A DNA stretch of 64,000 nucleotides. Origin: Candidatus Latescibacterota bacterium. GTDB taxonomy: Bacteria > Latescibacterota > UBA2968 > UBA8231. The position numbers were made by a program, and so were the translations under genes. The notes under the pieces were generated by a model that did no database searches, was not told where the DNA came from, and was given only the letters and a program-made list of their open reading frames with translations. This document shows, piece after piece, positions 9,275-63,855 of this stretch; within the stretch, counting starts at the first letter, position 1, and every line of letters starts with the position of its first letter. The stretch covers positions 152,822 through 216,821 of the forward strand of contig CBDFJF010000001.1 in NCBI GenBank assembly GCA_965248265.1, in the 5' to 3' direction.

Positions 9275-9753
9275 CGCGGCGCGAACAGTCGCGCGTGGTG
9301 AACATCCCAGGCAGCCAGGTGCGCCAGGAGGCCGCTGCGTTCATATTCATGCTCGCCGCGCATCGCGCTCCCCGACTGCGGTGCATGCGTGGCCTGCAAG
9401 CAGACACGACACTAGCTGCGTTGTTCAAAAGCCTCGCAACGGTGATCGGGGATACACCTCATCCATACAACTGGAAAGCGGCCGCATCTTCACGACAAGC
9501 TACGCGAAAAACGCCCGCGGCATTACTGAAATCCACGGGGACTCTTGGGATTTGCCGTGGGCCTTATTGGTGCGTTCGGAAAGCGGTGTCTGATGGCCTT
9601 TTCCGTTTATCTGAGCAGACTCCTGAGCGCCCACCGAAATGAAAATCGACCCCCAGCAGGCCAGACCCGATTCAGCATGGTCCAAACGGGAAGGCTTACC
9701 CCGGCGTAGACAAATCACCCAATCGTGTTAATGTGTTCCATTTGCATAGCCGG

Positions 9754-10535
9754 TCAATAGACAACAGAAACGATGCCGGTTCGCTCATCACCTCTCTCGA
9801 CTTTGATTGCTAATCTGTATACATAGGTGCCGGGCGGGACCAGCGCACCAGAACTATCGTGCCCATTCCATTCAAAGTGGAACTGGCCGCTTGCACCAAT
9901 TATGGGAGGAAGCTCCGTTATCGGCATGCCTGCAAGATCGAGGACCTGCAGCGTTGCTACTCGCTTCTCCGTGACGTCGCGAAGTCCGTAGGCGATAGTT
10001 ACCGTCTCGTTGATGCCATCCCCATTCGGCGTGAAGGGGTTGGGAGATACATCCACATTGACCAACAGGTCACCAACCAACGGGGTAGTCACGCTGAGGG
10101 AGTTGCCGGAGAACCGGAATGTTGCATTACCCGGTTTGATCTGCTGCACGAATCGGTCGGGATCTGTGCTGGTGAACACGCCCCTCTGAATTCCGTGCCA
10201 AAACGCAACACAGAGACGTCGAAGACGACCTCGATCTGTTTGGCACTATCCTCTTCGCCCTTGAGTTTGGGAAAACCTACCACGACCCGGTCCTCCTGTA
10301 TGATAGGCGGGAACATACTTCGGTCGACGTCCACACCGTCGACCTTGATCGACCGGATCGTATCGACGCGGGCATGAGTCAAGATTTCCAAGCGATCGAA
10401 CCCCTCATTGCTCTCCAGAAGTGTGGGACTTACCGCGTAGGTAAAGGTGGTTGGTTCGAACGAATCTACCTTGGATGGCCAAACCTCCCCCACAATTTCG
10501 TCGGCTGCAAAGTCCTCTTCTAAGCGCAGCGTCAA
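9754..10535 (-). pseudogene. FlgD-Ig-like-domain protein, N-terminally truncated and frameshifted
   Basis: Two overlapping ORFs (10089-10535 and 9754-10179). The join 'FGTEFRG|A..FTSTDPD' is one nucleotide shorter than the paralog at 7010-7060. No signal peptide. C-terminal 'SPNPFTPNGDGINET...GALVPPGTYVYRL'. Confidence 0.5.
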
Positions 10536-10559
10536 CTCGTCGAGCCGCGGCGCTGAGTT

Positions 10560-10836
10560 GAGTGTGGCCCGGAACTTGATCTCGATCTGGACGTACCGGC
10601 TCCTTGGGAGAGAAAGAAAGGATGTCCCGTCCTTCCAGACCTCGGGGAAAAAAGTCGAATTGCGGAGGCTGGTCTGAAAGACAATGGCGAGTCGAAGTAC
10701 AGTGGTGCCTGGTCAATTTCTCCCGGACCGGACAACTGGCCGGAAGTCGACTTCGTGATGGCGGAGTTGGAGGACGTTGACTTTATGACCGCGATCGAGG
10801 ACAAGACCTGGGGTACTATCAAGGCCGGCCTATAAA
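10560..10836 (+). pseudogene. 3' fragment of a paralog of gene 3954-4892
   Basis: Plus-frame 'ESKYSGAWSISPGPDNWPEVDFVMAELEDVDFMTAIEDKTWGTIKAGL*' versus 'ESLYSGIWSISPGPDNPPKTDFALAPLEPDIFTVIQDKTWGTIKAGI*'. Confidence 0.5.
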
Positions 10837-15596: not shown

Positions 15597-16828
<1,232 letters not shown>

Positions 16829-30396: not shown

Positions 30397-33300
30397 TCAT
30401 CTCGCCGCCAGCTTTAGTTGTGACTCCTCCAGCCTCTGAACGGCAGCGGTTAGCGCGTCCAACTGCGTTCGCAACTCAATGTCCCTCTGCTCCAATTGTT
30501 CGTTGCGGGCGGTGAGTCGCGCTATATCCTGCTCCAGTGATACATTGCGCGCCATCAACTCCCTCGTCTGTGAGTCGAGTTCCTGCACGGCGGCAACCAA
30601 CACCGGACGCACGCTATGTGTATCCACTTGCAGGTACCCGGTGCCGTCGTCCTGCACGCTTTCAGGAAATACCTCCTGAAATTCCTGGGCAATAAAGTTG
30701 TAATAGATGCGGTTGCCAACCGATGGATGCTCCCGCTGGTAATCCTCGTTATAGCGGAATCTGACCGGCCTCAACTGACGAATCGTCTCCATGCCCTTCT
30801 CAACTTCCTCGATGTCCATCTTCAGACGCCGGTCGGAGTTGGCAAGCCAGTCACCGGCTGCGGTTTTGGAGGCATTACCCTCGACCTCGAACGGATTGGC
30901 CGTCGGTGCTCGGCCAACGCCGACCTCTCCACTGTTGGCAATTGTCATCCTGGTTGAGGGTGCGGTATTGACAGCGCCTGTCTGGAACGCAATCGTGCCG
31001 CCGAGAGCCAACGCAATGGCCGTCGTCCCGGCGCCTACATTGGAAATCACATCGGCACCAGCATCGTCCAATTCATAGTTGGTTGATAGGACCATCGCGT
31101 TCGTATACGGGCCATTCTGGTTTCGCCAGATGTAGCCAAAGAAGTTACCCAGGGCCATTCTGAATCCGTGTGTTGTATTCGTCGGTCCCGCTATGTAAAC
31201 GTCCCCTTCGTCTATCTGAAGCTTGTAAGTCGGGCTTGTCGTGTTGATGCCGACATTGCCTCCGAGGAACAGTCCGGCGTAGCCGGTACCACCGTCCAGT
31301 ACGCGGCCGTAAACTGCCACACCAGGTTTAGTGTAGCCTGCAACTCCAAACCAGTTGTCATCGAAGCCCCCGAGTGCACCGTATGTGTAGGCGTTTGAAC
31401 CCGCATCCGCTTCCGCGTTTGTCGTCAAGCCGGTCACTGATGCGTGTTGAAGTGTGTGTGGTGCGGTCGCCGCCAGACTACTCCCAGAGTTGTCCAGGAC
31501 ACCGATCGCTGATCGAGTCTTCAGATTCGTGCCAGTAAAGGACCCGCCGATCACGTGTAACCTGCTCTCCGGCGCTGTCGTGCCGATGCCGACGTTGCCG
31601 TCACCTTGGATATGAACCGCGTCAACCGCCGTCCCTCCGGTCTTGGTCCTGAACCTGATGTCGCCGTCCGCGTTGTTGTAGAGGTTGTCGAAATACGTGT
31701 GCCCCGTGTTGTAGTCATGCCACATCTGCAAGCCTGTTGTCGCGCCGTCGTCTCTCGTCAGGAACAATCCCACGTCACCAGCACCAACCGACCGCATATC
31801 CAGCACCCTCGCATTGCCGGAATCAGAATTGAAAGCGGCCGGCAAATTGCCAGCCGGAACCGTCGTGTTGATGCCGACATTGCCCGTAGCCGTAATGCGC
31901 ATCTTCTCCACAGCCGTGGCGCTGTTCGACGTGAAGAATCGCATGGACGTGCCGCCAGCTGTTGAATTCGATGCAATATCGAGTATCCCGGTACCTGTGT
32001 TGTAGTTGATGACGCCAATGTTTGACGTGGTGAGATCCGTAGCCGCGGAATTTGTGATACGCATCTGACCACTGTTGATGTGCAACGCGTCTCCCGGGCT
32101 CGTTGTGCCGATGCCGACGTTGTTGTTGTCATCAATCGTCATGGCTGGTGAGGCCAGTGACGTGGTACCCGTAAGTCGCAGTTTTCCGTCCCCATCGTGG
32201 ATGCCCAAACCTGCCCAGTTCGCGGTGCCGTCGTGGTCCGAATCGAACCACAGCTCGCTGTCATTCCCGGCACCCGCGCCATTGTTCGTCAGAAATACAG
32301 CATTCACACCGCTGGCCTTGTGCAGGTGGAGTAGTACATTCGGATTTAATGTCCCAATCCCCACATTGCCGTTTGTCAGCAAACCCATCCCGGCAGTGCC
32401 ACCTGGCGAGATTTGCAGATGTTCGGTGGCAGATGTCGAAAGAATGCCAAACCCGCCCGCCGATTCGAGCCGTATGTGTTGTGCGGGAGTTCCCGTAAGT
32501 GATGAGCGTATCGCACCTTCAACTTCGAGCAAATCGTTGGGGCTGCTTGTACCGATGCCGACGTTGCCGTTCACGGTGAGTCCGCCAGCCCCAGCGATGT
32601 CTACCGCTCCATTGTCCGCCGTAATCGTACGCCCAGCGCCGGCACCACCCTCGTCGTAGGCCCCGTCGAGGGTGTTCTGGGTGTCGGTATCAGTATCCGT
32701 GTCCGTAGCGTTGAAGGTCAGGGTGTTGCCCGAAGGTGCGATGGCCATGTTGGTACCGGCAGCCAGGGTCACGGCATCCGTAAGGCTGTTCACCGTCTTG
32801 ACCACGGCCCCTGCAGCCACATCACCGGCCACTATGGTAGCATCGGCAATCTCAGCCGAGGTGATCGCACTGGCGGCGATCTTGGCGGTCGTGACAGCGC
32901 CCGCGGCCAGTTCCGTGGTGCCGACCCCGCCTGCAGCGATATCGAGGGTTACATCACCGGTAGTGCCGCCATTGGCAAGGCCCGTACCCGCCGTTACCCC
33001 GGTAATATCACCGCCAGCAGTGGCATCGATGGTAAGCGTGTTACCGGTCGGGGTGATGGCAATGTTAGATCCCGCCGCCAGAGTGACGGCGTCTTCCAGG
33101 CTGTTGACGCTGGTGACTACCTGACCGGCGGCGATGTCGGCAGCCACTATGGTTCCATCACCAATCTTCGCCGAAGTGACGGCGTCAGCGGCCAGTTCCG
33201 CACTGTCCACAGCACCAGCCGCGATTTCATCAGCGTCCACTGAATCAGTCGCCAGGTCGGCTGCCGAAATGGTGCCATCGGCGATCTTGGCACTCGTTAC

Positions 33301-34353
33301 GGCATCGGTACCCAGATCAGCCTCCGCGATCGCGCTGTCGATGATCTTCGCACTCGTGATCGAGTTATCCGCGATGTCGCCAGTACCCACTTCATTACCA
33401 CCGGTGGTCGAAATCGTGATGTTCTGTCCGACTCGCTCAATGTCGATGTTGGCACCTTCGACCAGGGTTACATCATCAGTGGCCTGGTTCAGGCTTGACA
33501 CAGCGGCCCCAGCGGCCACCTTGGAGGCCGTTACCGCAGCGTCCTGAATTTTGGCCGTCGTCACGGCATCAGCGGCAATCTGCGTGGCCGTTACAGCATC
33601 GTCGGCCAGATCCACGGTTGCGATCGTGCCATCGGCCAGTTTGGCCGAAGTCACCGCGCCATCAGCCAATTCGCCTCCAGAGGCCGTGATCGTCACCGTA
33701 TTACCGGTAGTGGCCACGGTGACATTGTTGCCGCCCGCAATGGTGACGCCGTTGGCAACGGTATTGACGCTCGTCACCACCGCTCCAGAAGCGATGTCTG
33801 CGGAGCTTATGCTGCCATCGGCGATCTTGGCTGCGGTCACGGCATCGTCGGCCAGCTCTTCATCGGTGATCGCAGCATCTGCAATCTTGTCGCTGGTCAC
33901 TGAGCCTTCCGCAAGCTGCTGCATACCCACGGCGCTCGCAGCGATCTTATCCGCAGTCACCGCACCGTCTTCAACATCCTTGGCGTAGAGGCTGTAGGGA
34001 GCCGCTACCAGCGCAATGCGGGGCGACAACTCATCGCCTGCGCCGATGGAAATGCCCAGGTAATAGGGCCGGTCAAAGGGCACTGCATCCAAGGACTCGC
34101 TCTCGCCCAGTACCACGCTGAAGAGCCCCTTGGCCGTCGTAACCGTCCGCGTCGACTCCCACGCCGCAGTACCCCCGGCAGCCTGCTCGTACAGGCGGAA
34201 GGTGATCTCATGGTCGCCATCTACGACCACATCGCCCGCGGCATCGCTCAGGTAGCCCATGTAGGAAATGGTCTTGGGCACGGCCTCCTGGGCATGGACG
34301 GTCGATAGCGAAATTGCCAGGTAAAACGCGGTGGCAAGTAGGCGTTTCATCAC
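30397..34353 (-). CDS. Giant secreted tail-fibre-like protein 1 (1318 aa): signal peptide, conserved N-domain, decapeptide-repeat stalk with 4 beta modules, variable distal region with 'GNVGIGT(T/S)SP' repeats, Peptidase-S74 intramolecular-chaperone domain, C-terminal coiled coil
   Basis: Signal peptide 'MMKRLLATAFYLAISLSTVHAQ'. Repeats 'AVTSAKIADG/TIATVDLADD...'. S74 signature 'SDRRLKMDIEEVEK...LRPVRFRYNEDY...FIAQEFQEVFPESV', then heptad-rich '...LEQDIARLTARNEQLEQRDIELRTQLDALTAAVQRLEESQLKLAAR'. Confidence 0.7.
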   Translation of the reverse strand: MMKRLLATAFYLAISLSTVHAQEAVPKTISYMGYLSDAAGDVVVDGDHEITFRLYEQAAGGTAAWESTRTVTTAKGLFSVVLGESESLDAVPFDRPYYLGISIGAGDELSPRIALVAAPYSLYAKDVEDGAVTADKIAASAVGMQQLAEGSVTSDKIADAAITDEELADDAVTAAKIADGSISSADIASGAVVTSVNTVANGVTIAGGNNVTVATTGNTVTITASGGELADGAVTSAKLADGTIATVDLADDAVTATQIAADAVTTAKIQDAAVTASKVAAGAAVSSLNQATDDVTLVEGANIDIERVGQNITISTTGGNEVGTGDIADNSITSAKIIDSAIAEADLGTDAVTSAKIADGTISAADLATDSVDADEIAAGAVDSAELAADAVTSAKIGDGTIVAADIAAGQVVTSVNSLEDAVTLAAGSNIAITPTGNTLTIDATAGGDITGVTAGTGLANGGTTGDVTLDIAAGGVGTTELAAGAVTTAKIAASAITSAEIADATIVAGDVAAGAVVKTVNSLTDAVTLAAGTNMAIAPSGNTLTFNATDTDTDTDTQNTLDGAYDEGGAGAGRTITADNGAVDIAGAGGLTVNGNVGIGTSSPNDLLEVEGAIRSSLTGTPAQHIRLESAGGFGILSTSATEHLQISPGGTAGMGLLTNGNVGIGTLNPNVLLHLHKASGVNAVFLTNNGAGAGNDSELWFDSDHDGTANWAGLGIHDGDGKLRLTGTTSLASPAMTIDDNNNVGIGTTSPGDALHINSGQMRITNSAATDLTTSNIGVINYNTGTGILDIASNSTAGGTSMRFFTSNSATAVEKMRITATGNVGINTTVPAGNLPAAFNSDSGNARVLDMRSVGAGDVGLFLTRDDGATTGLQMWHDYNTGHTYFDNLYNNADGDIRFRTKTGGTAVDAVHIQGDGNVGIGTTAPESRLHVIGGSFTGTNLKTRSAIGVLDNSGSSLAATAPHTLQHASVTGLTTNAEADAGSNAYTYGALGGFDDNWFGVAGYTKPGVAVYGRVLDGGTGYAGLFLGGNVGINTTSPTYKLQIDEGDVYIAGPTNTTHGFRMALGNFFGYIWRNQNGPYTNAMVLSTNYELDDAGADVISNVGAGTTAIALALGGTIAFQTGAVNTAPSTRMTIANSGEVGVGRAPTANPFEVEGNASKTAAGDWLANSDRRLKMDIEEVEKGMETIRQLRPVRFRYNEDYQREHPSVGNRIYYNFIAQEFQEVFPESVQDDGTGYLQVDTHSVRPVLVAAVQELDSQTRELMARNVSLEQDIARLTARNEQLEQRDIELRTQLDALTAAVQRLEESQLKLAAR

Positions 34354-36814: not shown

Positions 36815-37048
36815 TCAGAAAAGCTGATACGCTCCCCAGCCGCCGTCCACCCACAGCACTTCCCCCACGATGTAGGAAGCTTCGTCGCTGGCCAGATAGA
36901 GCACGGCTTCGGCAATCTCCTGCGGCGTGCCCAACCGCCGCATGGGGGTACGACGCTCGTACATCTCCTGCGAGGCGGTGCCTTCGGCCAGGCCTTTCTC
37001 GACCATCTCGGTCAACACCACGCCCGGCGCCAGCCCCACTACCCGCAC
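36815..37048 (-). pseudogene. C-terminal fragment of a short-chain dehydrogenase/reductase
   Basis: 'RVVGLAPGVVLTEM...RLGTPQEIAEAVLYLASDEASYIVGEVLWVDGGW' is the SDR C-terminal motif set. There is no N-terminal Rossmann part; the ANT(6) gene occupies that space on the opposite strand. Confidence 0.5.
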
Positions 37049-37067
37049 ACCGCGATCGGCCCACTCG

Positions 37068-37766
37068 ATGCACCCGACTACCGATGCTCAGTGGGATGAG
37101 GGAACGGTCGAGAAGCTGCAGAAGTGGGCAGCCGACAAGGAGGCAGTGCGTGCCGTACTTCTCACCGGCAACAGGGCAGGACCGCCAGGATCATACGATG
37201 CGTTGTCGGATTTCGATGTCGTTCTGGTCGTTCGAGATGTCCATCCTTTCCATGTGGACCGAATCTGGATAGGCGACTTTGGCGTCGTTCTGGTGACCTA
37301 CTGGGACGCACTCTATGCGGACCAGGAGACTGGACTTGAGATCTTTGCCAACGTCGTGCAGTACGAAAGTGGATTGCGGATCGACTTCACGCTTTGGCCT
37401 GTCGAAAAGGCGCGCCGGGTTGGCCAGACCTCGGAGCTCCCTGCTGGCCTTGACGTTGGTTATTCGGTGCTCGTTGACAAGGACAATCTTACGACGGGCT
37501 TCAGGGCCCCAAGCTTCATGGCGTTTGCCTCAGCAAAACCGAGCGCAGTGGAGTTTTCGCGGTTCGTTGAAGAGTTCTATAGCGATGCGCCGGCTGTCGC
37601 CAAGTTTCTGATGCGCGGCGACTTGATGCCGGCCAAGTGGGTCCTTGACCAAGACATGAAGCAGGTCTATCTGAGGCGGCTTCTGCAATGGCAGATTGCC
37701 CTGGACACTGACTGGAACGCGCAGTTCCGATCGCTTGGGAATGATCTACAGCGACGGGTATGTTGA
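37068..37766 (+). CDS. Aminoglycoside 6-nucleotidyltransferase ANT(6)/AadK-like protein
   Basis: 'VRAVLLTGNRAGPPGSYDALSDFDVVLVVRDVHPF' parallels B. subtilis AadK 'IRLVTLEGSRTNRNIPPDNFQDYDISYFVTDVESF' (recalled from memory). GC about 56%. Confidence 0.55.
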   Translation: MHPTTDAQWDEGTVEKLQKWAADKEAVRAVLLTGNRAGPPGSYDALSDFDVVLVVRDVHPFHVDRIWIGDFGVVLVTYWDALYADQETGLEIFANVVQYESGLRIDFTLWPVEKARRVGQTSELPAGLDVGYSVLVDKDNLTTGFRAPSFMAFASAKPSAVEFSRFVEEFYSDAPAVAKFLMRGDLMPAKWVLDQDMKQVYLRRLLQWQIALDTDWNAQFRSLGNDLQRRVC

Positions 37767-44005: not shown

Positions 44006-45460
44006 CTATCTCAGCAGCAGGAGCTTCCGCGTTTCCACTCGCTCGCCAGCTTGTAATCGATACAGATACACGCCACTGGCTAGCTCACGCTCGTTATCAT
44101 CTCGACCGTTCCATCGAAGGGTATACGTCCCCGCACTTCGATAACCGCGCAGCAGACTCGCCACCTTCTGTCCTGCGAGGTTGTATAAGGATAGATCAAC
44201 CTCGTCGGCGGTAGGCAGGGCGAAGCGAATGACGGTGTTGCTATTGAAGGGATTGGGGTAGTTCTGCCGTAGCGCAATCTGGTGCGGCAGTGTCGGCGCT
44301 GGTTCTTCTTCCACGGCAGTCGGCAACGGGAGTGCTGGGTCATGCGCCGCGAGCATGGCTTCGCGGTATTCGACCGGGAGAAGCGGCCATTCGTCGGGAC
44401 CGGGTCGCCTCCAGAGATTCACGTTCTGACTGTAGACCCAGACATATTCGTCGGTGTGCTCGAGGGCGCCTCGCAACGCCGTGGTCAACTCGGTAGGTGA
44501 GTAGTAGTTGCTGTTGAAATTCTCGGTGGAGAAGCCGCTGGAGCTGCTGCCGATGAATATGGGGAACGCGATCCGGGCGTGGCGGTCGAACTTCTCCGGC
44601 ACCCTGCTGTGAGCTCGGACTTCGGTCTTGAATTCCATCGCCACCTCCTCGAACTGGGCGGCCGTCTTGAACTTGTAGGCTTTCTCCGCGCCATCGATGA
44701 TCATGGCCTCGCCAGAGCATTCCGACAGCAGCCCGTCGAAGAACGGGCGCGTGAGATCGAAGTGGTCGCGCGACGCCCCAAAGTTCGAGTGCACCGGCCC
44801 GAGAAGGGTGATTATCCTGATGTCCGGGTAGACGGAGCTGACGGCCCGCATGATCTCGGCACCGCGCTCGAATACCTTGTCGTAGTATGCCTCGATCGTC
44901 CTGGGAGCGAGGTGGTTAACGCGTTGGGAGTCCCACAGGTTCGTGGCATTGTAGGCCTCGTTGTCGAACAAGAAACCCACCATGCCGGCGCGTTTGCAGT
45001 ACTCGGCGGCCACCTTCCAGTTGCTCACGACGGCGTCGAACTCAGAATCGAACCAGTTCGGCACCTTCAAGCCCGCTATGCCGGGGTCGAGGTAGACGAG
45101 AAGGAAATTCTCCATATACAAATTCGTATCAGCCGACCGCATGAGCTCAATGCCGGTATCGAGATCCACGAGGCGGTGGAAATCTTTCCGGAACAAACGG
45201 CCAACTGCCTCGGTGCGGAGGCCGTCCTTTTCGGTAATCGGGTAGATCGTAACGCCGTCGACGACTGGCATGACTCTTTCCATCTCACGCACATCGTCGA
45301 AGAACATGCGGGCAGTGGGTCTGCCGCTGAAGGAGATGACTTTCTTGCCGGTGTGAGCGGGCTGACTCCATCCCGGAATCGCGAACACCAGGATCAGGCC
45401 CAGGACCAGCAGCGAGCTGACGCAGCACAAGGTGCAATACCATTGGATGAATCGGTTCAT
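44006..45460 (-). CDS. Secreted protein with T9SS type-A C-terminal sorting domain (Por_Secre_tail)
   Basis: C-terminal 'LRQNYPNPFNSNTVIRFALPTADEVDLSLYNLAGQKVASLL...GTYTLRWNGRDDNERELASGVYLYRLQAGERVETRKLLLLR'. N-terminal signal/TM. The body is unassigned. Confidence 0.65.
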   Translation of the reverse strand: MNRFIQWYCTLCCVSSLLVLGLILVFAIPGWSQPAHTGKKVISFSGRPTARMFFDDVREMERVMPVVDGVTIYPITEKDGLRTEAVGRLFRKDFHRLVDLDTGIELMRSADTNLYMENFLLVYLDPGIAGLKVPNWFDSEFDAVVSNWKVAAEYCKRAGMVGFLFDNEAYNATNLWDSQRVNHLAPRTIEAYYDKVFERGAEIMRAVSSVYPDIRIITLLGPVHSNFGASRDHFDLTRPFFDGLLSECSGEAMIIDGAEKAYKFKTAAQFEEVAMEFKTEVRAHSRVPEKFDRHARIAFPIFIGSSSSGFSTENFNSNYYSPTELTTALRGALEHTDEYVWVYSQNVNLWRRPGPDEWPLLPVEYREAMLAAHDPALPLPTAVEEEPAPTLPHQIALRQNYPNPFNSNTVIRFALPTADEVDLSLYNLAGQKVASLLRGYRSAGTYTLRWNGRDDNERELASGVYLYRLQAGERVETRKLLLLR

Positions 45461-45630
45461 ATGATGGTCCCCTTTGGTGGCTGTAGGATACACTTTTGCA
45501 AGAGACGTGCCAAGAAGGGCGACAGGAGAGTCAGGCGGTGCTAACTCATTGTTGCTGTGGGGATTGAGGTTAGCAGACTGTTTCCCGGACACATCGAGGC
45601 CGTGAGTCCGGTTTTCTGGACGGATTTCGT

Positions 45631-46532: not shown

Positions 46533-49500
46533 TCATCGCGCCGCCAGCTTTAGTTGTGACTCCTCCAGCCTCCGAACGACAGCGGTCAGTGCGTCCAACT
46601 GCAGTCGCAACTCATCGTTACTCCGAGCCAACGTTTCCTTTTCGGATCGCAGTTCCGACAACTCAGCCTCCACCTGAGTCAATTCGGCACTACCAGACGC
46701 GGCCTTCTCGTGCTGTTGCTCGATGATCCCTTGCTGTTCCTGAATAGCCTTGACGAGAACAGGGACGAAATCGGAATAGTAAAGGCCCAGGGTCTGGTCA
46801 GGATCGTCGCCGATGTGGACGACCTCGTCGATTACAGTCCGCACCTCCTGGGCGATCAAACCAAGCTTCCTGCCCCGTTCAGGCCGGTCCTTCCAGGTAT
46901 AGGAGACAGGGTGCAGACGCATCACTTCGTTGAGCCCATATGGACTGTCCTGGATACTCTCCTTCATCCGGCGATCTGACGTGTTCACCGAACCACTAAC
47001 GGCGAATACGTCCGTCCATCGATTACCCGATGCACCGCAAGAAATTGTGTTGTCAGTGAGCGGCCTGATGTTACCACCGAAATCGACAATACCAGCACCG
47101 AACTGGATGTTATTTCCAGCCGGTTGGATCCAAAGCTTTTTGCTATTCAGCGACTGTATGTAACCACCATTTGCATCAACGCCAACGGCTACCTGACTGA
47201 GTGCTCCGCCACTCTGTCCGTTAGTCGCCATTATGTGCTGCCCGCTGCCGCCCGGTGTGGCATCTACCTTGGATACCAACAGCGGGTGAGATCCGGAAGG
47301 ACTCGTCGTGCCGATGCTGACGTTGCCACCTGTGGGTTGCAACACTATCTCAGTGCCGCTCTGTGATAGGAGTTCCAAATCTCCTGTTGTCCCATCACGT
47401 GTTATAGAACCGGATGTTGCGGACGCGAAGAGAAGGGACAGATCCACACCGGCAGACTTCAGCAAAACATTACCAGTCACTTCAAGCTTTTCTCCTGGTG
47501 CTGTGTTGCCGATGCCGACATCGTTGGCTGACGTGATGCGCATCGCCTCACTGCCACCCGTGTGGAATAGGATGGGAAGGCTGTTGGATTGAAGATAAAG
47601 GGCGGATTCGTCAACAGGTGAATAGAGCCATCCCTGCAGGTTCGCATCCTTCATGACCCGAAAACCACTATTGAGACTACCCGCGGATTGAGCCGTGACA
47701 TCGATATAGGTCGTGGCCGCACCTCCATCCACAACCAGTTCCTCTGCCGGACTCGTCGTGCCGATGCCGACGTTGCCGGCTGCGCTCACGGTCATCCTCG
47801 TCGTCGAGCCCGTCTGAAATTGAATGTCACGGGAGCCCGAGTTGTGTCCGATCTGTAGTCCAGTGGCATCAATGTGATCGACCGTGCTGGCGAAGCTTGC
47901 ACCTTCGAGCTTCAGCCCAACGGATCCAGAAAGCACATCTCGGGCGTGTACCCGAGTAGTCGGTGCTGTTGTGCCCACGCCCACGTTGCCAGCATCGTCC
48001 ACGACAAGCCGATATGTGGCGACACTCGTCTCGGCCTTATCCCGTACCTGGAAGAGCCACCAGGCGTTCTGCAATGCGGGGATGGCCGAATAGGCATCGG
48101 ACCAGACTCCACTTTGCCACTTTATGTTTCCGCTCGTTCTGTCGAAATACTCGATCGTCCCATAATTATTAGTACCGTCATCATACCGCATTCGCATCGT
48201 GAAGAATGGTCCCAGGTCAACGTCTATTGGAGTAATAGGGCTTGTTGTTCCGATTCCGAGCCCCCCATCCTTCCAGTACATATAGGCTTCCGACAGATCA
48301 CCTTTCCAAAGTGCCAGGTCGTCTATGTTGTTGCTCTGCTGAAACCGGACTTTGCCCGTTCCCCTTGTGAACGTGAGCTGATCGCCTCCTGTTCCTTCGG
48401 CCACGTGGAGTTTTGCCAACGGCGAAGTAGTGCCTATACCCACGTTGCCATTCACCGTCAGTCCCCCAACTCCTGCGACATCGACAGCACCGTTGTCCGC
48501 TGTGATGGTGCGGCCAGCTCCCGCTCCACCTTCGTCGTAGGCTTCGTCAAGTGTATTCTGCGTGTCGGTGTCGGTATTGGTGTCGGTGGCGTTGAAGGTG
48601 AGGGTGTTGCCGGAAGGAGCGATGGCCATGTTAGTACCAGCGGCCAGAGTGACTGCGTCAGTAAGGCTGTTCACCGTCAGAACCACCGCACCTGCGGCAA
48701 CATCGCCTGCCACTATGGTCGCATTGGCAATCTCAGCCGAGGTGACCGCACCAGGGGCAATCTTGGCAGTTGTGACAGCGGCGGCGGCCAGTTCCGTGGT
48801 CCCAACTCCACCTGCGGCGATATCGAGGGTTACATCGCCCGTGGTGCCGCCATTGGCAAGGCCCGTACCCGCCGTTACGCCAGTGATGTCACCCCCGGCG
48901 GTGGCGGCAATAGTCAGGGTGTTACCGGCCGGGGTGATGTTGATGTTAGATCCCGCGGCCAGAGTGACGGCATCGGTCAGGGTGTTGAGAGTGGTGACCA
49001 CTGCGCCACCTGCTATATCGCCAGCGCCGATGGTCGCATCGAGGATCTTCGCACTCGTCACCGCGTCATTGGCCAGATCGGCTGTAGCAATGGTGGCGTC
49101 CAGGATTTCATCGGTGGCCACAGCGCCTGTGGCAATGTCAGTGGCGACAATGGTTGCGTCGGCGATCTTTGCACTCGTTACCGCATCGGGGGCCAGATCA
49201 GCCTCCGCAACTGCACCGTCGATGATCTTGGCACCTGTGATCGAGTTGTCTGCTATGTCGCCAGTGCCCACCTCATTTCCACCGGTGGTCGAGATCGTGA
49301 TGTTCTGGCCGACTTGAACGATGTCGATGTTGGCACCCTCAAGCAGGGTTACGTCGTTGGTGGCCGAGTTGAGACTCAATACCGCCGTGTCCGTGGCCAA
49401 CTTGGCTGCCGTCACCGAGGCGTCCTGGATCTTGGCAGTCGTTACTGCATCGGCCGCGATCTCTGCCTCGCTCACGGCATCGGCGGCTATCTGCGTCGCC

Positions 49501-50323
49501 GTTACCGCATCGTCTGCCAGATCAACGGTTGCAATCGTGCCGTCTGCCAGTTTGGCCGAAGTCACCGCGCCATCGGCCAGGTCAGCAGTACCAATGGCAC
49601 CGTCGGTGATCTTGGCGGAGGTCACCGCATTGTCAGCCAATTCAGATCCGGCTGTAGTGATCGTAACCGTATTACCGGCAGTGGCCACCGTGACGTTATC
49701 ACCACCTGCGATCGTGACCCCGTCGGTGACGTTGTTTACGCTCGTCACTACCGCTCCCGAAGCGATGTCGGCTGAGCCTTGCTGCCATCGGCGATCTTGG
49801 CTGCAGTCACGGCATCATCGGCCAGCGCTTCACCAGTGATCGCTGCATCGGCAATCTTGGCGCTGGTTACTGAGTCTTCCGCAAGCTGCTCCGTACCCAC
49901 GGCGTTGGCAGCGATCTTATCCGCAGTCACCGCGCCGTCTTCGACATCCTTGGCATAGAGGCTGTAGGGAGCCGCTACCAGTGCAATGCGCGGCGACAAC
50001 TCATCGCCTGCGCCAATCGAGATCCCCAGGAAATAGGCTCGGTCGAAGGGCACCTCATCCAGAGACGCACTCTCGCCCAGTACCACATCGAAAAGCCCCT
50101 TGCTCGTCGTTACCGTCCGCGTCGCCGTCCACACGGCAGCACCCCCTGCGGTCTGCTCGTACAGGCGGAAGGTGATCTCATGGTCACCATCTGTGACGAC
50201 ATCGCCCGCGGCATCGCTCAGGTAGCCCATGTAGGAAATGGTCTTGGGCACGGCCTCCTGGGCGTGGGCGGTCGATAGGGAAATTGCAAGGCAAAGTGAG
50301 ATGGCAAGCAGGGATTTCATCAC
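46533..50323 (-). pseudogene. Giant secreted tail-fibre-like protein 2 (about 1262 aa if joined), with a frameshift near 49770-49783; paralog of 30397-34353
   Basis: N-terminal ORF 49748-50323 (signal peptide 'MMKSLLAISLCLAISLSTAHAQ' plus conserved N-domain) ends 'KIADGS|KAQPTSLRER*'. The paralog DNA at 33790-33815 is one nucleotide longer at this point. The remainder (46533-49748) carries the same 4 beta modules, a divergent distal part, S74 'SDRRMKESIQDSPYGLNEVMRLHPVSYTWKD...LGLIAQEV' and the coiled coil '...VRRLEESQLKLAAR'. Confidence 0.65.
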
Positions 50324-56425: not shown

Positions 56426-57796
56426 ATGTCAAACAGCATGCCGAACAGCCCTCTGACTCGCGGTGATTTACCGCCGGAGTACGGTCTTCTGGTCCTGCAG
56501 GCCGAGCGACCCGAGCAGCAGATCTACGTCCGTTATCTGATGTTGATTCTCAACTACCGCTTCGGACTGGACCTGATCACGGTCAAGAGTCATGTGGAGG
56601 CGTTTTCGGCGGCGCGCAAGTACGGCCGCAAGATCCGCTGCACCGTCATCGTCCAGGACACCAAGATCGACACCAAATCGACGATCGCGGCCCTGAGCCT
56701 CGAAGACGCCATCCCGTTGATTGCCGTACTGCCTGCCGGCTTGATCGAATCACACCAGGATCTCGTCCAACGCATGACCAACGTCCATTTTTGTGCCTGG
56801 GAAACGGCGTTGGGAAAATCGGACGCCGCCCTTCTGCCGCTGATCTTGAAGACCTTCGCCGCCAACGGCATCGGTGAGCTCTTTGGTGAAGACGCACAGC
56901 AATTGCCGTTCGAGGAAATGCAGGCTCGCGTCGAACGCCGTCTGCGCAACCTGAAAACACTGCCGACCCTGCCCGAAATCGCCGTCCGCATCATGACCAT
57001 GATCCAGGATCCCAGACCCACAGTCGAGGATCTTGAAGAGGTACTGACCAGTGACGCTGCCATCGTCCACAAGCTGCTTCAGGTCGTCAACTCCCCCGTC
57101 TTCGCCGGCAGCGGGCACAAGGGAAGTTGGTCACTGGGGGAAGCTATCGTCCGGCTCGGACGCAACAAGGTCGGTGCCATCGCGCAGCAGATCAAAATGA
57201 TGAACTCACTGGTCAAGCCGGAGCAGAGCCTTTTCGACCTGCGCCGTTTCTGGGAGCACTCGGTCGGCTGCGCCCTGGTGGCCGACCGGCTTTACCGAGA
57301 CAAGCTCCTGAACCTCAAGGAGGAGATCGAGTTCAACGACTACTGGATCGGCGGCCTGATGCACGATTCCGGCAAGGTCGTACTGGGCTTCTTTTTTTGG
57401 GAGCACTTCGAGGAGATTCTCACCCACATGGGCAAGGAAGAAACCTCCTTTCGCCAGGCCGAGAAAGATTTGTGTGAGGTTGCTAATCATGAATTCCTGG
57501 GTCAGCTGCTATTGCTCAAATCGAACGTTGGCGAGCAGCTGGTGCGCGCCGTCGGCGAGCATCACTCAGGCAGCAAGGATCCCAGTGACCTCGTCTGTCT
57601 CCTGCACGTAGCCAACAACCTGTGCAAGGACCTGGATAAGGGATACCTGCAGGAAGAGAGCAGCCTCTATCGGGTGGAGGTGCTGCAGAAACTCGGCATC
57701 ACCCGGGAGGACATGGAGCGGATCCGTGAAGAACTCGGAGAGCGGATGGTGAAGGAGATCGACGATCTCGTCGATCGCTGCGTGCAGCCGGTTTGA
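56426..57796 (+). CDS. HDOD-domain signalling protein with degenerate receiver-like N-terminus
   Basis: 'LPTLPEIAVRIMTMIQDPRPTVEDLEEVLTSDAAIVHKLLQVVNSPVFAG...LGEAIVRLGRNKV...GGLMHDSGKVVL'. Confidence 0.7.
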   Translation: MSNSMPNSPLTRGDLPPEYGLLVLQAERPEQQIYVRYLMLILNYRFGLDLITVKSHVEAFSAARKYGRKIRCTVIVQDTKIDTKSTIAALSLEDAIPLIAVLPAGLIESHQDLVQRMTNVHFCAWETALGKSDAALLPLILKTFAANGIGELFGEDAQQLPFEEMQARVERRLRNLKTLPTLPEIAVRIMTMIQDPRPTVEDLEEVLTSDAAIVHKLLQVVNSPVFAGSGHKGSWSLGEAIVRLGRNKVGAIAQQIKMMNSLVKPEQSLFDLRRFWEHSVGCALVADRLYRDKLLNLKEEIEFNDYWIGGLMHDSGKVVLGFFFWEHFEEILTHMGKEETSFRQAEKDLCEVANHEFLGQLLLLKSNVGEQLVRAVGEHHSGSKDPSDLVCLLHVANNLCKDLDKGYLQEESSLYRVEVLQKLGITREDMERIREELGERMVKEIDDLVDRCVQPV

Positions 57797-57808
57797 GGCG
57801 CTACCGGT

Positions 57809-58774
57809 CTACTGGCCAAGGATCTCTGCGTAACGACTCAGCGTTAGATTGCCCCCACTCAGAACACCGACAACCTTTTTCCCGCACAGTCTTTCCTTCC
57901 CCAGCTCGAACGCCGCCGCCAGCGACACCGCACCAGCGCCTTCGGCGACCAGGCGGGCACTCTGGGCCAGCCGCCGCACGGCCACGTCGATGGCATCGTC
58001 GCCGACCAGGACGAACTCATCCAGCAGCTCCCACATCATCGTCATCGTCATCTCGAAGGGCACCCGTGTTGCCAGGCCTTCACTGGTGGTGTCCGCATCA
58101 GCCTCGACGTCGAGCCGACGCTCCTTCCAGGCCATCCAGGCACCGGGTGCCTGTTTCGACTGTGCGCCGATTACGGTTACATCCGGGTGCGTTTCTTTGA
58201 CCGCCAGACACAAACCGCTCACACCGCTCCCCCCTCCCACCGGGCCGATGATGATGTCGACGTCCGGCAGTTGCTCGAGAATCTCCAGTCCCATCGTGCC
58301 CACACCCGCGATCAGGCGAGGCTCGTTTGCCGAGTGTACGTAGCGCCTGCCCTCGGCACGGGCCACGCGCTCGACCTCTACCCGCGCCTCGTCAAAATCA
58401 CGACCGTACAGTCTGACATCCGCGCCCAATTCCCGCATCGCCGCCAGCTTGCGTTCGTTGACGCGCTCAGCCGGAGCATAGATGATGACGGGCACACCGA
58501 AGAGCCCGCCAGCCATGGCCATCGATTGGCCGTGATTGCCGGTGCTGGCACTGATTACACCTGCTGCCTTTTCCTCATCGCTGAGACGACCAATGAGGTT
58601 GACACCGCCCCGGACCTTGAAGGCGCCGATCGGTTGCAGGTTCTCGCACTTGATGTAATAGTCGCAACCCAAAGCGTGCGAGAGCGACTCACTCTTTATT
58701 AGAGGAGTTGGTGGTAGGTAAGGTGTGATCAGCTCGCGCGCCGAAACCACATCTGCGTAGGTAGGTCGACTCAT
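57809..58774 (-). CDS. PLP-dependent threonine/serine dehydratase family enzyme
   Basis: 'LQPIGAFKVRGGVN', 'SASTGNHGQSMAMAG', then a glycine-rich loop. Confidence 0.7.
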   Translation of the reverse strand: MSRPTYADVVSARELITPYLPPTPLIKSESLSHALGCDYYIKCENLQPIGAFKVRGGVNLIGRLSDEEKAAGVISASTGNHGQSMAMAGGLFGVPVIIYAPAERVNERKLAAMRELGADVRLYGRDFDEARVEVERVARAEGRRYVHSANEPRLIAGVGTMGLEILEQLPDVDIIIGPVGGGSGVSGLCLAVKETHPDVTVIGAQSKQAPGAWMAWKERRLDVEADADTTSEGLATRVPFEMTMTMMWELLDEFVLVGDDAIDVAVRRLAQSARLVAEGAGAVSLAAAFELGKERLCGKKVVGVLSGGNLTLSRYAEILGQ

Positions 58775-59511
58775 CTGGATCCCGCTCGGATGCGCTCTAT
58801 AGCTGTGCTCAGGACAGCGGCGTTGTCGCAACGCTCCACAATCGATAACAATTCGGCTTCCGCTGTCTCCGCTATGGCTTCAACCTCGGCCACCAGTACG
58901 GGCAGAGCCCGGGTTACGTTGTCGACGATCGTGATCGTGGCCTGCTGCGCCGTCCGCGACAGCGGGTTGAGGTCGACGGTGATGACTTCCTTGCCTGCCT
59001 TCACCAGCGCTCCGCAGCGATCGCCGTCTTCCAACGGGACGAACACCACGTCGGCGATCGCCAGACCGTCGGGGTGCACGAAGCGGCGGTTGGAGTCGAT
59101 GTCGTCGAGGACCACTTGCGGGTCGGGAAGCAGAACGACCTCGGCTCCCGCCTGCTTCAAATGCTCGGCAATGGCGCGCTCGCGTTCCTCTGAGGCATGG
59201 AAAATATTGACCTCAATCGGGGCCGGCACGATCCGGCTCAACTGCACGATGTCATCCGGCACCAATGCGGCCGTGTTGCCGTTTATTGATAGAACTGGGT
59301 GCTTTGCCGTAAGCAATCGTGCGGCGGCAGCGCGGATGGCCTGGCTGGCAAAGGCATGCGTCTGTTCTCCCAACAGGTAGTCGAAGGCTTCACCGCGCCC
59401 GTGTGCGATGAGCCCATGCGGTGAAGTGATGCCGCTTTCCACACCATTGACCATGGCGTCACGCAGGCGCAGCGAGGTATAGCGCGGGTGGCTTGTTGGT
59501 ACGTCTGTCAC
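58771..59511 (-). CDS. Archaeal-type phosphopantothenate synthetase (4-phosphopantoate-beta-alanine ligase, DUF137/COG1701-like)
   Basis: 'SHPRYTSLRLRD...GLIAHGRGEAFDYLLGE...PVLSINGNTAALVP...ADVVFVPLEDGDRCGALVKAGKEVITVDLNPLSRTAQQATITIVDN' matches the recalled motif set of the archaeal PPS family. Not database-verified. Confidence 0.55.
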   Translation of the reverse strand: MTDVPTSHPRYTSLRLRDAMVNGVESGITSPHGLIAHGRGEAFDYLLGEQTHAFASQAIRAAAARLLTAKHPVLSINGNTAALVPDDIVQLSRIVPAPIEVNIFHASEERERAIAEHLKQAGAEVVLLPDPQVVLDDIDSNRRFVHPDGLAIADVVFVPLEDGDRCGALVKAGKEVITVDLNPLSRTAQQATITIVDNVTRALPVLVAEVEAIAETAEAELLSIVERCDNAAVLSTAIERIRAGSR

Positions 59512-60422
59512 AGCAACCCACCCCGTCGCCTGGCCAGAGCTGTCTCCTGGCAGCCCTCGAATCGGCTGGTGCTGAAAACGGCATTGCCCAGCATGATCAT
59601 GGACGCCTCTCCCCCAGTTGATTCGATATTCTCGATGAGTCCACGCACTCGATCATCTCGCAGGAGTCCACTGCCTTCGGCGAACTGCCGGCACACCCGG
59701 ATGCACTCGTTCATCTCGACGCGCTCCCTCACGCTCAATTCTCCGAGCGCTGTCAGTGCCACGTCCGCGGCGGCATTGATGCGAGCCGCCTGCTCCGTGT
59801 CGGAGAGCACGTCGCGAGTTCGAATCGGACCGAAGTAACGGTAGAAAATCGCTTTCCCCTCCTCTATCGGCATCGGTCGGGCGGCGAGTGGTTGACCCGG
59901 AGTCAGCTTGACCAGGCAACCGCCATGATACTGCGCACACACATCCCCGAGTCCGGTGAGATTCTCCACTTCGGCGACATGCGCCATCATGGCGAGATCC
60001 TCTTCCCCATAACCCAGGTCGAGCAACGCGTTGAGCGCGTAGGCACAGGCCAGTGCCGAAGCCCCGCTGAGGCCGAAACCGGAACTCAGCGGCAGAGCAG
60101 ACTCTATCCGGACCGCAACAGGCAGCGGCGTCAGTTTCTCTATCAGGTTGTTTACGGTCGGGAACTCTATGATCTCTCCGTTGAAGTAAACGCTCGAATC
60201 ACTGCCGCTATCCTCCTGGCTGGCGACCTCGACTTCAACCCCGTCGCGAACGGTGAATCCCAGACCCAGAGAATGCATCTGAGCGGGAGACTTATGCGGG
60301 ATGATCTTGAACACCCCGGACATGTTCCCCGGCGCGAAGGCAGCTACCGTCTTCATCGAATGAACCAGGCCTGATACGAGAAACAGGGGTAATGAAAAAT
60401 GGCGTAATGAACAATGGGACAA
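59508..60422 (-). CDS. GHMP-kinase family protein, candidate pantoate kinase (PoK)
   Basis: N-terminus 'AAFAPGNMSGVFKII'. GHMP ATP motif 'PLSSGFGLSGASALACAYALNALL'. Overlaps the PPS-like gene by 4 bp. Confidence 0.5.
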   Translation of the reverse strand: MSHCSLRHFSLPLFLVSGLVHSMKTVAAFAPGNMSGVFKIIPHKSPAQMHSLGLGFTVRDGVEVEVASQEDSGSDSSVYFNGEIIEFPTVNNLIEKLTPLPVAVRIESALPLSSGFGLSGASALACAYALNALLDLGYGEEDLAMMAHVAEVENLTGLGDVCAQYHGGCLVKLTPGQPLAARPMPIEEGKAIFYRYFGPIRTRDVLSDTEQAARINAAADVALTALGELSVRERVEMNECIRVCRQFAEGSGLLRDDRVRGLIENIESTGGEASMIMLGNAVFSTSRFEGCQETALARRRGGLL

Positions 60423-60452
60423 TCAGCGATAAGGTAGGTAGGACACGACGCC

Positions 60453-61049
60453 TTACCCACGTCCAGCGACAATCTGCTCATGCCGGTAGCAATCGATGGT
60501 GTGGTCGTTGACGATGCCCGTCGCCTGCATCAGGGCATAGCAGATCGTCGGGCCCACGAAGGTGAAGTCTCTTTTCTTCAAATCTTTGCTGATGGTCTCC
60601 GCCAGCGGCGTCAGAGCGGGAACATCGCTCATCCCACGCCACCTGTTCTGAATTGGCGTTCCATCCACGAAAGCCCAGAAATAGGCATCGAAGCTGCCGA
60701 ATTCCCGCTGCACCTCCAGAAAAGCCCTGGCATTCCTGACCGTACCTTGGACCTTGAGCCGGTTGCGGATGATGCCCTCGTCTTTGAGCAAGCGAGCAAT
60801 CTTGCGCTTGTCATACCGGGCAACCTTGCTCGCATCGAAGCCATCCAACAGCCGCCGATAGTTCTCTCGCTTCTTGAGAACCGTCGACCAGCTCAGTCCC
60901 GCCTGCGCTCCTTCCAACACGATAAACTCGAACCACACAGTGTCGTCATGTACAGGTACGCCCCACTCATCATCGTGGTAAGCCACGTACTGATCGTCCG
61001 TCCCCTTTGCCCATTCGCAGCGAACGAGTTCCCGCTGGCCCCGTGCCAT
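60453..61049 (-). CDS. tag: DNA-3-methyladenine glycosylase I
   Basis: 'YHDDEWGVP', 'LEGAQAGLSWSTVLKKRENYR', 'GIIRNRLKVQ', 'FVGPTICYALMQATGIVNDH', 'CYRH'. Near-collinear with E. coli Tag. Confidence 0.85.
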   Translation of the reverse strand: MARGQRELVRCEWAKGTDDQYVAYHDDEWGVPVHDDTVWFEFIVLEGAQAGLSWSTVLKKRENYRRLLDGFDASKVARYDKRKIARLLKDEGIIRNRLKVQGTVRNARAFLEVQREFGSFDAYFWAFVDGTPIQNRWRGMSDVPALTPLAETISKDLKKRDFTFVGPTICYALMQATGIVNDHTIDCYRHEQIVAGRG

Positions 61050-61071
61050 CAGCGGTGTTCCTCGAGAGCCA

Positions 61072-61605
61072 TCAGCGGTGTTCCTCCAGATGTCGTCTCA
61101 AATCGAATAGATAGGCTTCGAGCGTGGCCGTGTGCCCGATGAAGACGGCGGCGACGAAGCGAAATATTGGATCGTAGACCTCGCCCTCTTCCACGATGCG
61201 GATGTAGGTGCCCGGGCCGTCATCGTCGAGTTCGAAGGTCCAGGTGCCGGCAAACGGCAAATCATCTTGAGCGATCCTGGTGACCAACCGGCGCGGTGGG
61301 TCGACCTCGACAGTCGCCAGCGTCAATGAGTCTCCCCAGGCATCAACCTCGACCCAGGTGGTGACACTGTCCCCTTTTGACGAGCGGACGACGACGGCGG
61401 CTACATCACTGCGCCATCGAGAGTGTTGCGGCCAATCCGTGATCGTCTGCCACACTCGCTCCCTCGTGGCAGGTAGTTCCCCGCGCACGGCTGCGACGTG
61501 GGCAACCGGCAGTATCGATCCGACGACGTAGGCGATGGCAATCAGGATCAGCAGTGCGCTGCCGAGCGTGAGGGTTACGACCTTCATCACCTGCCTGCCA
61601 GTCAT
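61072..61605 (-). CDS. SRPBCC (polyketide-cyclase/Bet v1-like) membrane-anchored protein
   Basis: N-terminal TM, then a beta-rich 'WQTITDWPQHSRW' fold signature. Confidence 0.5.
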   Translation of the reverse strand: MTGRQVMKVVTLTLGSALLILIAIAYVVGSILPVAHVAAVRGELPATRERVWQTITDWPQHSRWRSDVAAVVVRSSKGDSVTTWVEVDAWGDSLTLATVEVDPPRRLVTRIAQDDLPFAGTWTFELDDDGPGTYIRIVEEGEVYDPIFRFVAAVFIGHTATLEAYLFDLRRHLEEHR

Positions 61606-63108: not shown

Positions 63109-63855
63109 CTACTTGCGTGCCTTCTTCAGAAAGTCGGCTGCCCCATCCGACAGCCATCCTTGCGCCGGGGTCATCAGGAAGCGGATGCCCTGGTCAACCA
63201 GCGCCTCCGCCGTGTTGTTCCAGGCCAGCGCCCCGGCGGTGCGCCCTGAATCCACGATCTTGCGCAACGCTTTCTCCAGGACTTCGACCGCCTCGGGATG
63301 ATTCGTTTTACCCGTGTGCCCCATGGAACTGGCCAGATCCGATGGGGCCACGAAGAACACGTCGATGTGGTCTACTGTGAGAATCTCATCCAGGTTTTGC
63401 ACGGCGACGATGTCTTCGATCAGGACGATGAGCAGGGTCTCGTCGTTGGCGACGGTAAAGTAGTCCTCGACGCCGAAACCCTGACGGCCACCGAACATGC
63501 CGCGCTTGCCGATAGGCCCGAACTTACCCCCCTCAACCACGTTGGCTGCTTCTTCTTTGGTGTTGACGTGCGGTACCACGATCCCCTGCGCGCCAAGGTC
63601 CATCGTGCGGTAGATGAGATTCTGATCATTGCGGTTGACCCGCACGATGGAGGTCATGCCCCAGATGTCGCATGCACGCGTTAGGTTGCCGATTTCTGAT
63701 GGTTCGGCGGCACCGTGTTCGCCCTCGATCCATATACCGTCGAAATCGTTGGGGCCGAAGCCTTCAACATCGTTTGCGTCCGTGATACCTGTGACAGTGC
63801 AGGTTACTTCCCCCGCATCCAGTTTTCGTTTTACTCGATTCGGTCTGATCTGCAT
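63109..63855 (-). CDS. HpcH/HpaI-family aldolase (2-keto-3-deoxy-sugar-acid aldolase-like)
   Basis: 'GFDGIWIEGEHG', 'IVRVN', 'GAQGIVVPHVNTKEEA', 'ETLLIVLIED'. Confidence 0.75.
   Translation of the reverse strand: MQIRPNRVKRKLDAGEVTCTVTGITDANDVEGFGPNDFDGIWIEGEHGAAEPSEIGNLTRACDIWGMTSIVRVNRNDQNLIYRTMDLGAQGIVVPHVNTKEEAANVVEGGKFGPIGKRGMFGGRQGFGVEDYFTVANDETLLIVLIEDIVAVQNLDEILTVDHIDVFFVAPSDLASSMGHTGKTNHPEAVEVLEKALRKIVDSGRTAGALAWNNTAEALVDQGIRFLMTPAQGWLSDGAADFLKKARK

Follow-up and report, generated by a model that had tools for sequence, protein, structure and literature searches.

A probable archaeal-type route to 4'-phosphopantothenate in a bacterium

The canonical pathway of coenzyme A (CoA) biosynthesis employs PanC (pantothenate synthetase, PS) and pantothenate kinase (PanK; CoaA/CoaX), whereas the archaeal pathway employs pantoate kinase (PoK) together with phosphopantothenate synthetase (PPS). 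Both convert pantoate, beta-alanine, and phosphate to 4'-phosphopantothenate, and achieve this net conversion with non-homologous enzymes and in opposite reaction order (PMC7883664, PMC6650551). PoK and PPS of Thermococcus kodakarensis have been characterized biochemically and genetically (Yokooji et al. 2009, as cited in PMC6650551). Both enzymes were also reported for sponge-symbiotic Poribacteria (Entoporibacteria), which lack PanK and PS; the authors suggested that the genes had been acquired horizontally from archaea within the sponge and that they are connected with symbiosis (Thomès & Lescure 2020, Genome Biol Evol; PMC7883664). Here, we describe an overlapping PoK–PPS gene pair in a 64,000-nt stretch of DNA (the window; contig CBDFJF010000001.1 of assembly GCA_965248265.1, positions 152,822 to 216,821) from a Latescibacterota bacterium. 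Because bacterial PoK–PPS was published for Poribacteria in 2020 (PMC7883664), it is already known as a kind; new here is the instance in a Latescibacterota-like lineage, and full-text literature searches found no paper that takes bacterial PoK/PPS to Latescibacterota or other phyla. We estimate a probability of about 0.82 that the pair encodes a PoK and a PPS that together make 4'-phosphopantothenate in the "archaeal" order, in a cassette anciently acquired from archaea. The pair and the gene downstream of it comprise the following features:

59508..60356, minus strand: gene of a PoK-type GHMP kinase (282 aa from the ATG at 60356)
58771..59511, minus strand: gene of PPS (4-phosphopantoate--beta-alanine ligase, phosphopantothenate synthetase; 246 aa, GTG start)
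59508..59511, minus strand: GTGA stop/start overlap of PoK and PPS (4 nt, read from the DNA)
57809..58774, minus strand: gene of a threonine/serine-dehydratase-like, pyridoxal phosphate (PLP)-dependent enzyme (PALP; 321 aa), whose ATG at 58774 overlaps the PPS stop as ATGA

The cassette resembles that of Poribacteria in its bacterial host, in the adjacency of genes encoding an archaeal-type PoK and PPS, and in its membership of the same bacterial clade. Its PPS is 62–64% and its PoK ~60% identical to Poribacteria-labelled proteins, and the PoK of the window and one PoK of Poribacteria score almost equally against the same PoK model (165.6 vs 165.5 bits). By contrast, the window shares a block consisting of an HDOD gene, the gene of an ~850-aa protein, and the PALP gene with metagenome-assembled genomes (MAGs) of Latescibacterota class UBA2968, including NP81, whereas the poribacterial locus (L008; related loci carry L numbers) differs in gene context, lacks the PALP gene, and has PoK and PPS without a start/stop overlap.

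The enzymes of T. kodakarensis (PoK, 6JBC; PPS, 3WDK) belong to the same two families, and the PPS of the window retains all near-invariant residues of that family. However, the PoK of the window is closer to the methanogen-type than to the Thermoplasmata-type model (165.6 vs 79.4 bits) and carries a lysine in place of Arg155, and its host is a mesophilic bacterium; the genes overlap in the window but are presumably unlinked in T. kodakarensis. Two archaeal-labelled loci (L001 and L002) share with the window the cassette with its 4-nt overlap, the highest archaeal identities found, a lysine at the position of Arg155, and a similar AFAPxN N-terminus, but the cassette is located near panB/coaBC in these loci and not in the window.

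Identity of the two enzymes

Curated profile cut-offs, matches to solved structures, and conserved residues identify the product of 58771–59511 (246 aa) as a bona fide PPS of the DUF137 family (PF02006). In profile searches, it scores 229.3 bits against PF02006 (cut-off 26.4; E 2.9e-68), 340.5 bits against NF010324 of NCBIfam (cut-off 227; E 5e-102), and, in a narrow pass, 303.1 bits against the archaeal equivalog NF041123 (cut-off 300). Residues 1–242 of the query match the solved structures of PPS from T. kodakarensis (3WDK; E 4.8e-69) and T. onnurineus (4MB0; E 4.6e-68), and the identity with T. kodakarensis PPS amounts to ~50–55% over the full length. In an alignment of 52 family members, the protein retains all 37 near-invariant columns (i.e., those with at least 95% conservation among 36 PPS that do not belong to the bacterial clade), including HPR, GRGE..DY..GE, NGN, E..N, EDGD, and DLNP.SR. 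Its predicted activity is the ATP-dependent ligation of 4-phosphopantoate, as opposed to pantoate, with beta-alanine.

The upstream gene encodes a protein that is PoK-like rather than a shikimate, homoserine, or mevalonate kinase, as supported by several lines of sequence comparison. The protein matches the N-terminal domain of GHMP kinases (PF00288; 52.5 bits, cut-off 22.3) and contains the phosphate-binding motif PLSSGFGLSGASA. Its best match in NCBIfam is the methanogen-type PoK model NF040725 (165.6 bits, E 1.1e-48), followed by a second PoK model, the Thermoplasmata-type NF041122 (79.4 bits, cut-off 500), whereas the scores for other GHMP families are much lower (homoserine kinase, 33.9 bits; mevalonate kinase, 31.7 bits; galactokinase, 24.5 bits; archaeal shikimate kinase, 17.1 bits). 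The best match in the PDB is the PoK of T. kodakarensis (6JBC; 67.6 bits, E 9.4e-18), to which the protein is ~31% identical; a mevalonate kinase is next (28.5 bits, E 8e-6).

We take the catalytic residues of T. kodakarensis PoK to be Ser104, Glu134, and Asp143, and those that recognize pantoate to be Ser28, His131, Arg155, and Thr186; this list reportedly goes back to Kita et al. in 2020. All seven positions are located on conserved alignment columns, and six of them (S28, S104, H131, E134, D143, and T186) correspond to identical residues in the window kinase (S29, S97, H126, E129, D138, and T180). The phosphorylation of pantoate, as opposed to pantothenate, is the activity predicted for this kinase.

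These assignments largely bear out a sequence-only reading of the same DNA. It had regarded the product of 58771–59511 as an archaeal-type DUF137 ligase, which is corroborated by the three curated cut-offs passed, the match to 3WDK, and the 37 conserved columns; all motifs of the series that it quoted are present in the translation (SHPRY, GLIAHGRGEAFDYLLGE, NGNTAALVP, VPLEDGDR, ITVDLNPLSR, and TIVDN). Its assignment of the upstream gene to a GHMP kinase with a PoK-like N-terminus agrees with the score against the PoK model (165.6 bits vs at most 34 bits for other GHMP subfamilies) and with 6JBC as the best structural match. The profile search that it had proposed places both proteins in the PPS and PoK families, with PPS above the cut-offs and the kinase below the strict PoK cut-off. 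The overlap of the two genes that it had noted was confirmed in the DNA, but the kinase start that it had placed at 60422 merely marks the longest open reading frame (ORF); the real start is probably the ATG at 60356.

Organization of the gene pair and its conservation in bacteria

The longest ORF of the kinase (59508–60422; 304 aa, TTG start) contains AAFAPGNMSGVF, whereas the 282-aa form opens with MKTVAAFAPGNMSGVF (MKTVAAFAPG...). The ATG at 60356 is most likely the true start, because homologs of 277–282 aa cover the 282-aa form completely and the gene of a close relative was called at 281 aa. The GTG start of PPS is consistent with the alignment of its first residue with the N-termini of characterized and homologous PPS. 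The stop codon of PoK (TGA, 59510–59508) and the start codon of PPS (GTG, 59511–59509) form the GTGA overlap, which suggests translational coupling of the two genes. A spacing of 96 nt separates the kinase gene from the upstream tag gene (60453–61049). A scan of positions 57500–61300 for sigma-70-like promoters and intrinsic terminators found none above shuffle expectation.

If both proteins act as predicted, PoK would phosphorylate D-pantoate with ATP, and PPS would then condense 4-phosphopantoate with beta-alanine in a second ATP-dependent step. The resulting 4'-phosphopantothenate would feed the ordinary downstream enzymes of CoA biosynthesis, and the two enzymes would be expressed from a translationally coupled cassette (GTGA). 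By analogy with Entoporibacteria, the pair may replace PanC and PanK in this genome; neither PanC nor PanK was found in the 64-kb window or in the related loci read (~12–20 kb).

The arrangement recurs in related bacteria. Contigs of up to 1.28 Mb whose PPS is 87–94% identical to that of the window carry the order HpcH aldolase, GFO oxidoreductase, AHSA1-like protein, Tag, PoK, PPS, and PALP, with a TonB-dependent receptor near the cassette; the flank order Tag, PoK, PPS, PALP, and HDOD recurs in independent assemblies at 69–94% protein identity. Loci with 65–69% PPS identity contain PoK–PPS together with a divergent HDOD gene and the gene of an ~850-aa protein, as in the window. Synteny with L009 comprises the HDOD gene, the gene of the ~850-aa protein, and the PALP gene; L009 belongs to GCA_002726335.1, a MAG from Tara Oceans seawater (NP81) that GTDB assigns to Latescibacterota (UBA2968; UBA8231) (PMC9874027). 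Judged by this synteny, the window most likely derives from a Latescibacterota-like bacterium and not from Poribacteria. Of the bacterial loci read, only L011 departs from the adjacency of PoK and PPS: on this bacterial contig, which carries ruvB, PPS has no PoK beside it and a separate GNAT gene is located directly upstream of PPS. The 4-nt overlap of PoK and PPS is present also in the bacterial loci L003, L004, L007, and L009 and in the archaeal-labelled loci L001 and L002.

Archaeal relatives and phylogeny

The two archaeal-labelled loci are AT-rich and, among relatives with an archaeal label, stand nearest to the bacterial clade. L001, titled as a Methanosarcinales MAG, carries panB, coaBC, PoK, and PPS (2044–6025); panB and coaBC are separated by a gap, and 4-nt overlaps join coaBC to PoK and PoK to PPS. 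L002, titled as the Nanoarchaeota single amplified genome (SAG) AM-311-D13, has coaBC upstream of the overlapping PoK–PPS pair (5195–6699); a 655-aa ORF on the minus strand overlaps the end of coaBC, and the pair is located 114 nt downstream of this ORF. Since both loci carry the same overlapping pair, the architecture of the window cassette is that of archaeal CoA operons. The identities with L001 and L002 are 44% and 41% for PoK and 57% and 54–55% for PPS, respectively. Nanoarchaeota are among the archaea listed as lacking PoK and PPS (Shimosaka et al. 2019), yet the Nanoarchaeota-labelled SAG has both.

Metagenomic homologs were found at about 57–65% identity for each protein, with hundreds from bacteria. 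The taxon names among the matches listed are all bacterial (Poribacteria, Latescibacteria/Latescibacterota, Handelsmanbacteria, "Gemmatimonadetes", Planctomycetota, and Lentisphaeria), and in MAGs of Poribacteria, Latescibacterota, and others, NCBI and JGI have already labelled close homologs "pantoate kinase" or "4-phosphopantoate--beta-alanine ligase". Clustering at 50% identity divides the whole PPS family (E <= 1e-3) into 538 clusters, a small number. Its representatives include two fusions of PPS with PanB (P0265, 529 aa; P0273, 521 aa); another representative (P0283, 408 aa) is a fusion of PPS with a GNAT acetyltransferase.

In a neighbor-joining (NJ) tree of the family, all named bacterial PPS group in a single shallow clade, with L001, L002, and L011 beside it, whereas the remaining family members, among them Thermococcus and Methanomethylovorans, are far more divergent. 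In 183 of 200 NJ bootstraps, the named bacterial PPS split from the four archaeal PPS that carry names; in 170 of 200, bacteria plus L001 and L002 split from Thermococcus plus Methanomethylovorans. The window cassette belongs to a large bacterial clade that comprises MAGs named Latescibacterota (class UBA2968), Poribacteria, Planctomycetota, and Lentisphaeria. Because this clade appears to branch inside a family that is archaeal in other respects, the Latescibacterota-like bacterium probably inherited a cassette that had been gained from archaea in the distant past. The tree topology is in keeping with an old archaea-to-bacteria transfer of the cassette and its subsequent spread among bacteria, in agreement with the proposal for Poribacteria (PMC7883664). 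The cassettes of L001 and L002, which are DPANN-like and fall among groups said to lack PoK and PPS, may reflect an exchange between bacteria and archaea in either direction.

Genomic context and host

The PALP gene that follows PPS encodes a member of PF00291 (256 bits) whose best matches in NCBIfam are threonine ammonia-lyases, all below cut-off; in the PDB, it matches best the catabolic threonine dehydratase 2GN0 (E 2.7e-54), and an ACT domain is absent. A serine-racemase-like enzyme is another reading of this protein. In the Latescibacterota-like loci, its gene is orthologous and linked to PPS: it follows PPS also in L003–L007 and in L009 (66% identical there) but is not located beside PPS in L008 (Poribacteria) or L010. 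It is probably co-transcribed with PPS, and the simplest reading of the linkage is inherited synteny; that this translationally coupled gene has a role in the pathway is a weaker possibility.

Upstream of PoK–PPS, L009 and L010 share a block that encodes an ~530-aa protein, a ComA-like protein (PF02679, phosphosulfolactate synthase family), a peptidase S15/PepX_C protein, and a HAD phosphatase. The block lacks the HAD gene in L007 and is absent from the window, where the tag gene and an AHSA1-like gene occupy its place. Transfer of a HAD–PoK–PPS unit was considered and dismissed, because the HAD hydrolases of L009 and L001 belong to unrelated subfamilies with only a local match of 33 residues. 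A functional link with the HpcH/HpaI aldolase was likewise discarded: the window gene (63109–63855) is 32% identical to its counterpart in L009, so the two are non-orthologous.

A gene of a D-2-hydroxyacid dehydrogenase adjoins PPS in two different bacterial contexts, L009 (region 8747–10585) and L011 (region 1351–2319), and L009 also carries an HpcH/HpaI aldolase. Ketopantoate reductase (KPR) has been reported missing in Poribacteria, and the dehydrogenase could act as a surrogate for it, but the enzymes of L009 and L011 are only 38% identical and their profile matches are generic, which weighs against this idea.

The composition of the PoK, PPS, and PALP genes (GC content 0.60–0.62; GC content at third codon positions, GC3, 0.70–0.72) is close to that of the window genes (0.596+/-0.031 and 0.724+/-0.067, respectively), and the correlation of their relative synonymous codon usage with that of the pooled window genes (0.69–0.82) falls within the background (0.77+/-0.18). 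The normal local GC content noted in the sequence-only reading is therefore matched by GC3 and codon usage, and because the composition of the cassette is ameliorated in all three respects, a recent acquisition is unlikely. That reading had also assumed a host with a type IX secretion system (T9SS), of which one part held up: cargo-type C-terminal domains are present, but no T9SS machinery genes were seen in the 64-kb window. The profile matches to sorting domains are as follows:

44006-45592, minus strand: T9SS C-terminal sorting domain PF18962 (Por_Secre_tail)
6581-7063, minus strand: T9SS C-terminal sorting domain PF13585 (CHU_C)

The genes at 3–1892 (plus strand), 6581–7063 (minus strand), and 44006–45592 (minus strand) encode T9SS sorting and/or FlgD_ig-like domains, which is consistent with an FCB-group-like bacterium. 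No archaeal hallmark was found in the window, which contains many GFO/IDH/MocA oxidoreductases.

Other features of the window include an IS3-family transposase (rve, HTH_21; 15597–16550, minus strand), whose 5' end is overlapped by an ALIL frameshifting pseudoknot (RF01497; 101 bits, 16434–16550), the typical site of the programmed -1 frameshift between orfA and orfB. Two large proteins of 1318 and 1071 aa (30397–34353 and 46533–49748, both minus strand) have a C-terminal Peptidase_S74 domain ("chaperone of endosialidase") as their sole Pfam match; this domain is usual in phage tail fibers and spikes, and no obvious prophage context was noted around the two genes. The gene at 36927–37766 (plus strand) encodes a protein of the streptomycin adenylyltransferase family (PF04439; 143.6 bits) that resembles aminoglycoside nucleotidyltransferases.

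Alternative explanations

Several observations weigh against an ancient PoK–PPS cassette that functions in CoA biosynthesis. The score of the kinase against NF040725 (165.6 bits) lies below the equivalog cut-off of 380 bits, which places it outside strict membership. The PoKs of L001 and L002 (143.5 and 135.3 bits) and one PoK of Poribacteria (165.5 bits) fall short likewise, and the cut-off therefore leaves out the whole subclade rather than the window kinase alone. Arg155 of T. kodakarensis PoK is replaced by a lysine (K150), a conservative change that is found in all 13 clade members aligned. No other gene of the CoA pathway is located within the 64-kb window, and the literature searched yielded no assay of any enzyme of the bacterial clade. 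The PPS tree was calculated by NJ with a midpoint root and includes few labelled archaea, because only one of ten family representatives is named (Methanomethylovorans), and the labels of L001 and L002 are used as titled and are unverified. With so few labels and so simple a method, we infer rather than observe the direction of the transfer. The inter-domain transfer suggested by the sequence-only reading agrees with the bacterial host and the stable bacterial context, but it would be ancient and clade-wide rather than specific for this genome.

A functional PoK–PPS might coexist with a canonical PanC and a type III or type I PanK encoded elsewhere in the genome and represent a redundant or condition-specific route. 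Such redundancy would be in line with the extent of the window, which covers 64 kb of a contig of ~3.18 Mb, and with the variable composition of the cassette, as illustrated by the bacterial contig L011, whose PPS has no adjacent PoK; it appears unlikely in view of the Entoporibacteria, which possess PoK and PPS but lack PanK and PS (Thomès & Lescure; PMC7883664), and of the absence of PanC and PanK from both the window and the ~12–20-kb related loci. It is considerably less probable still that both proteins are divergent paralogs that act on other substrates (e.g., another 2-hydroxy acid and an amine) outside CoA biosynthesis. The score of the kinase below the equivalog cut-off, the exchange of Arg155 for lysine, and the Latescibacterota-type neighbors without connection to CoA (ComA-like protein, peptidase S15, HAD, 2-hydroxyacid dehydrogenase, aldolase, and PLP-dependent dehydratase) would fit such a scenario, but PPS scores above its equivalog cut-off and keeps all 37 near-invariant positions, and the kinase keeps six of the seven functional residues listed above. 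Moreover, the same PoK subclade occurs in the panB–coaBC–PoK–PPS operon of L001, and fusions of PPS with PanB exist.

That both families are classically archaeal could also point to an artefact of assembly or binning, i.e., an archaeal fragment attached to bacterial DNA, or to a very recent private acquisition. This explanation is effectively refuted by the recurrence of the same flank order in independent assemblies (69–94% protein identity; contigs up to 1.28 Mb), the overlapping start and stop codons that tie the pair to a bacterial-type PLP gene, a GC content, GC3, and codon usage indistinguishable from the rest of the window, and the hundreds of bacterial homologs at about 60–65% identity. 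A PoK–PPS cassette of ancient archaeal origin that makes 4'-phosphopantothenate thus remains the preferred interpretation.

Implications for CoA biosynthesis in candidate phyla

Cassettes of this type occur widely across several candidate bacterial phyla, which weakens the proposal of a link to sponge symbiosis; that one of them is found in a seawater MAG speaks against a role confined to symbiosis. The genes have retained the overlapping layout of archaeal panB–coaBC–PoK–PPS operons while their composition was ameliorated. For the reconstruction of pathways from MAGs, this means that automated pipelines may call "missing panC/coaX" and infer an auxotrophy for pantothenate. A more far-reaching proposal, which we put forward tentatively and at rather less than even odds, is that PoK–PPS is inherited vertically and provides whole lineages of free-living bacteria with their only route to 4'-phosphopantothenate, instead of being an adaptation of Poribacteria to sponge symbiosis. 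Such lineages may include the marine Latescibacterota of class UBA2968 (e.g., NP81) and the organism represented by the window. If this proposal is true, the use of the CoA pathway as a marker of "archaeal versus bacterial" ancestry would fail at the scale of phyla.

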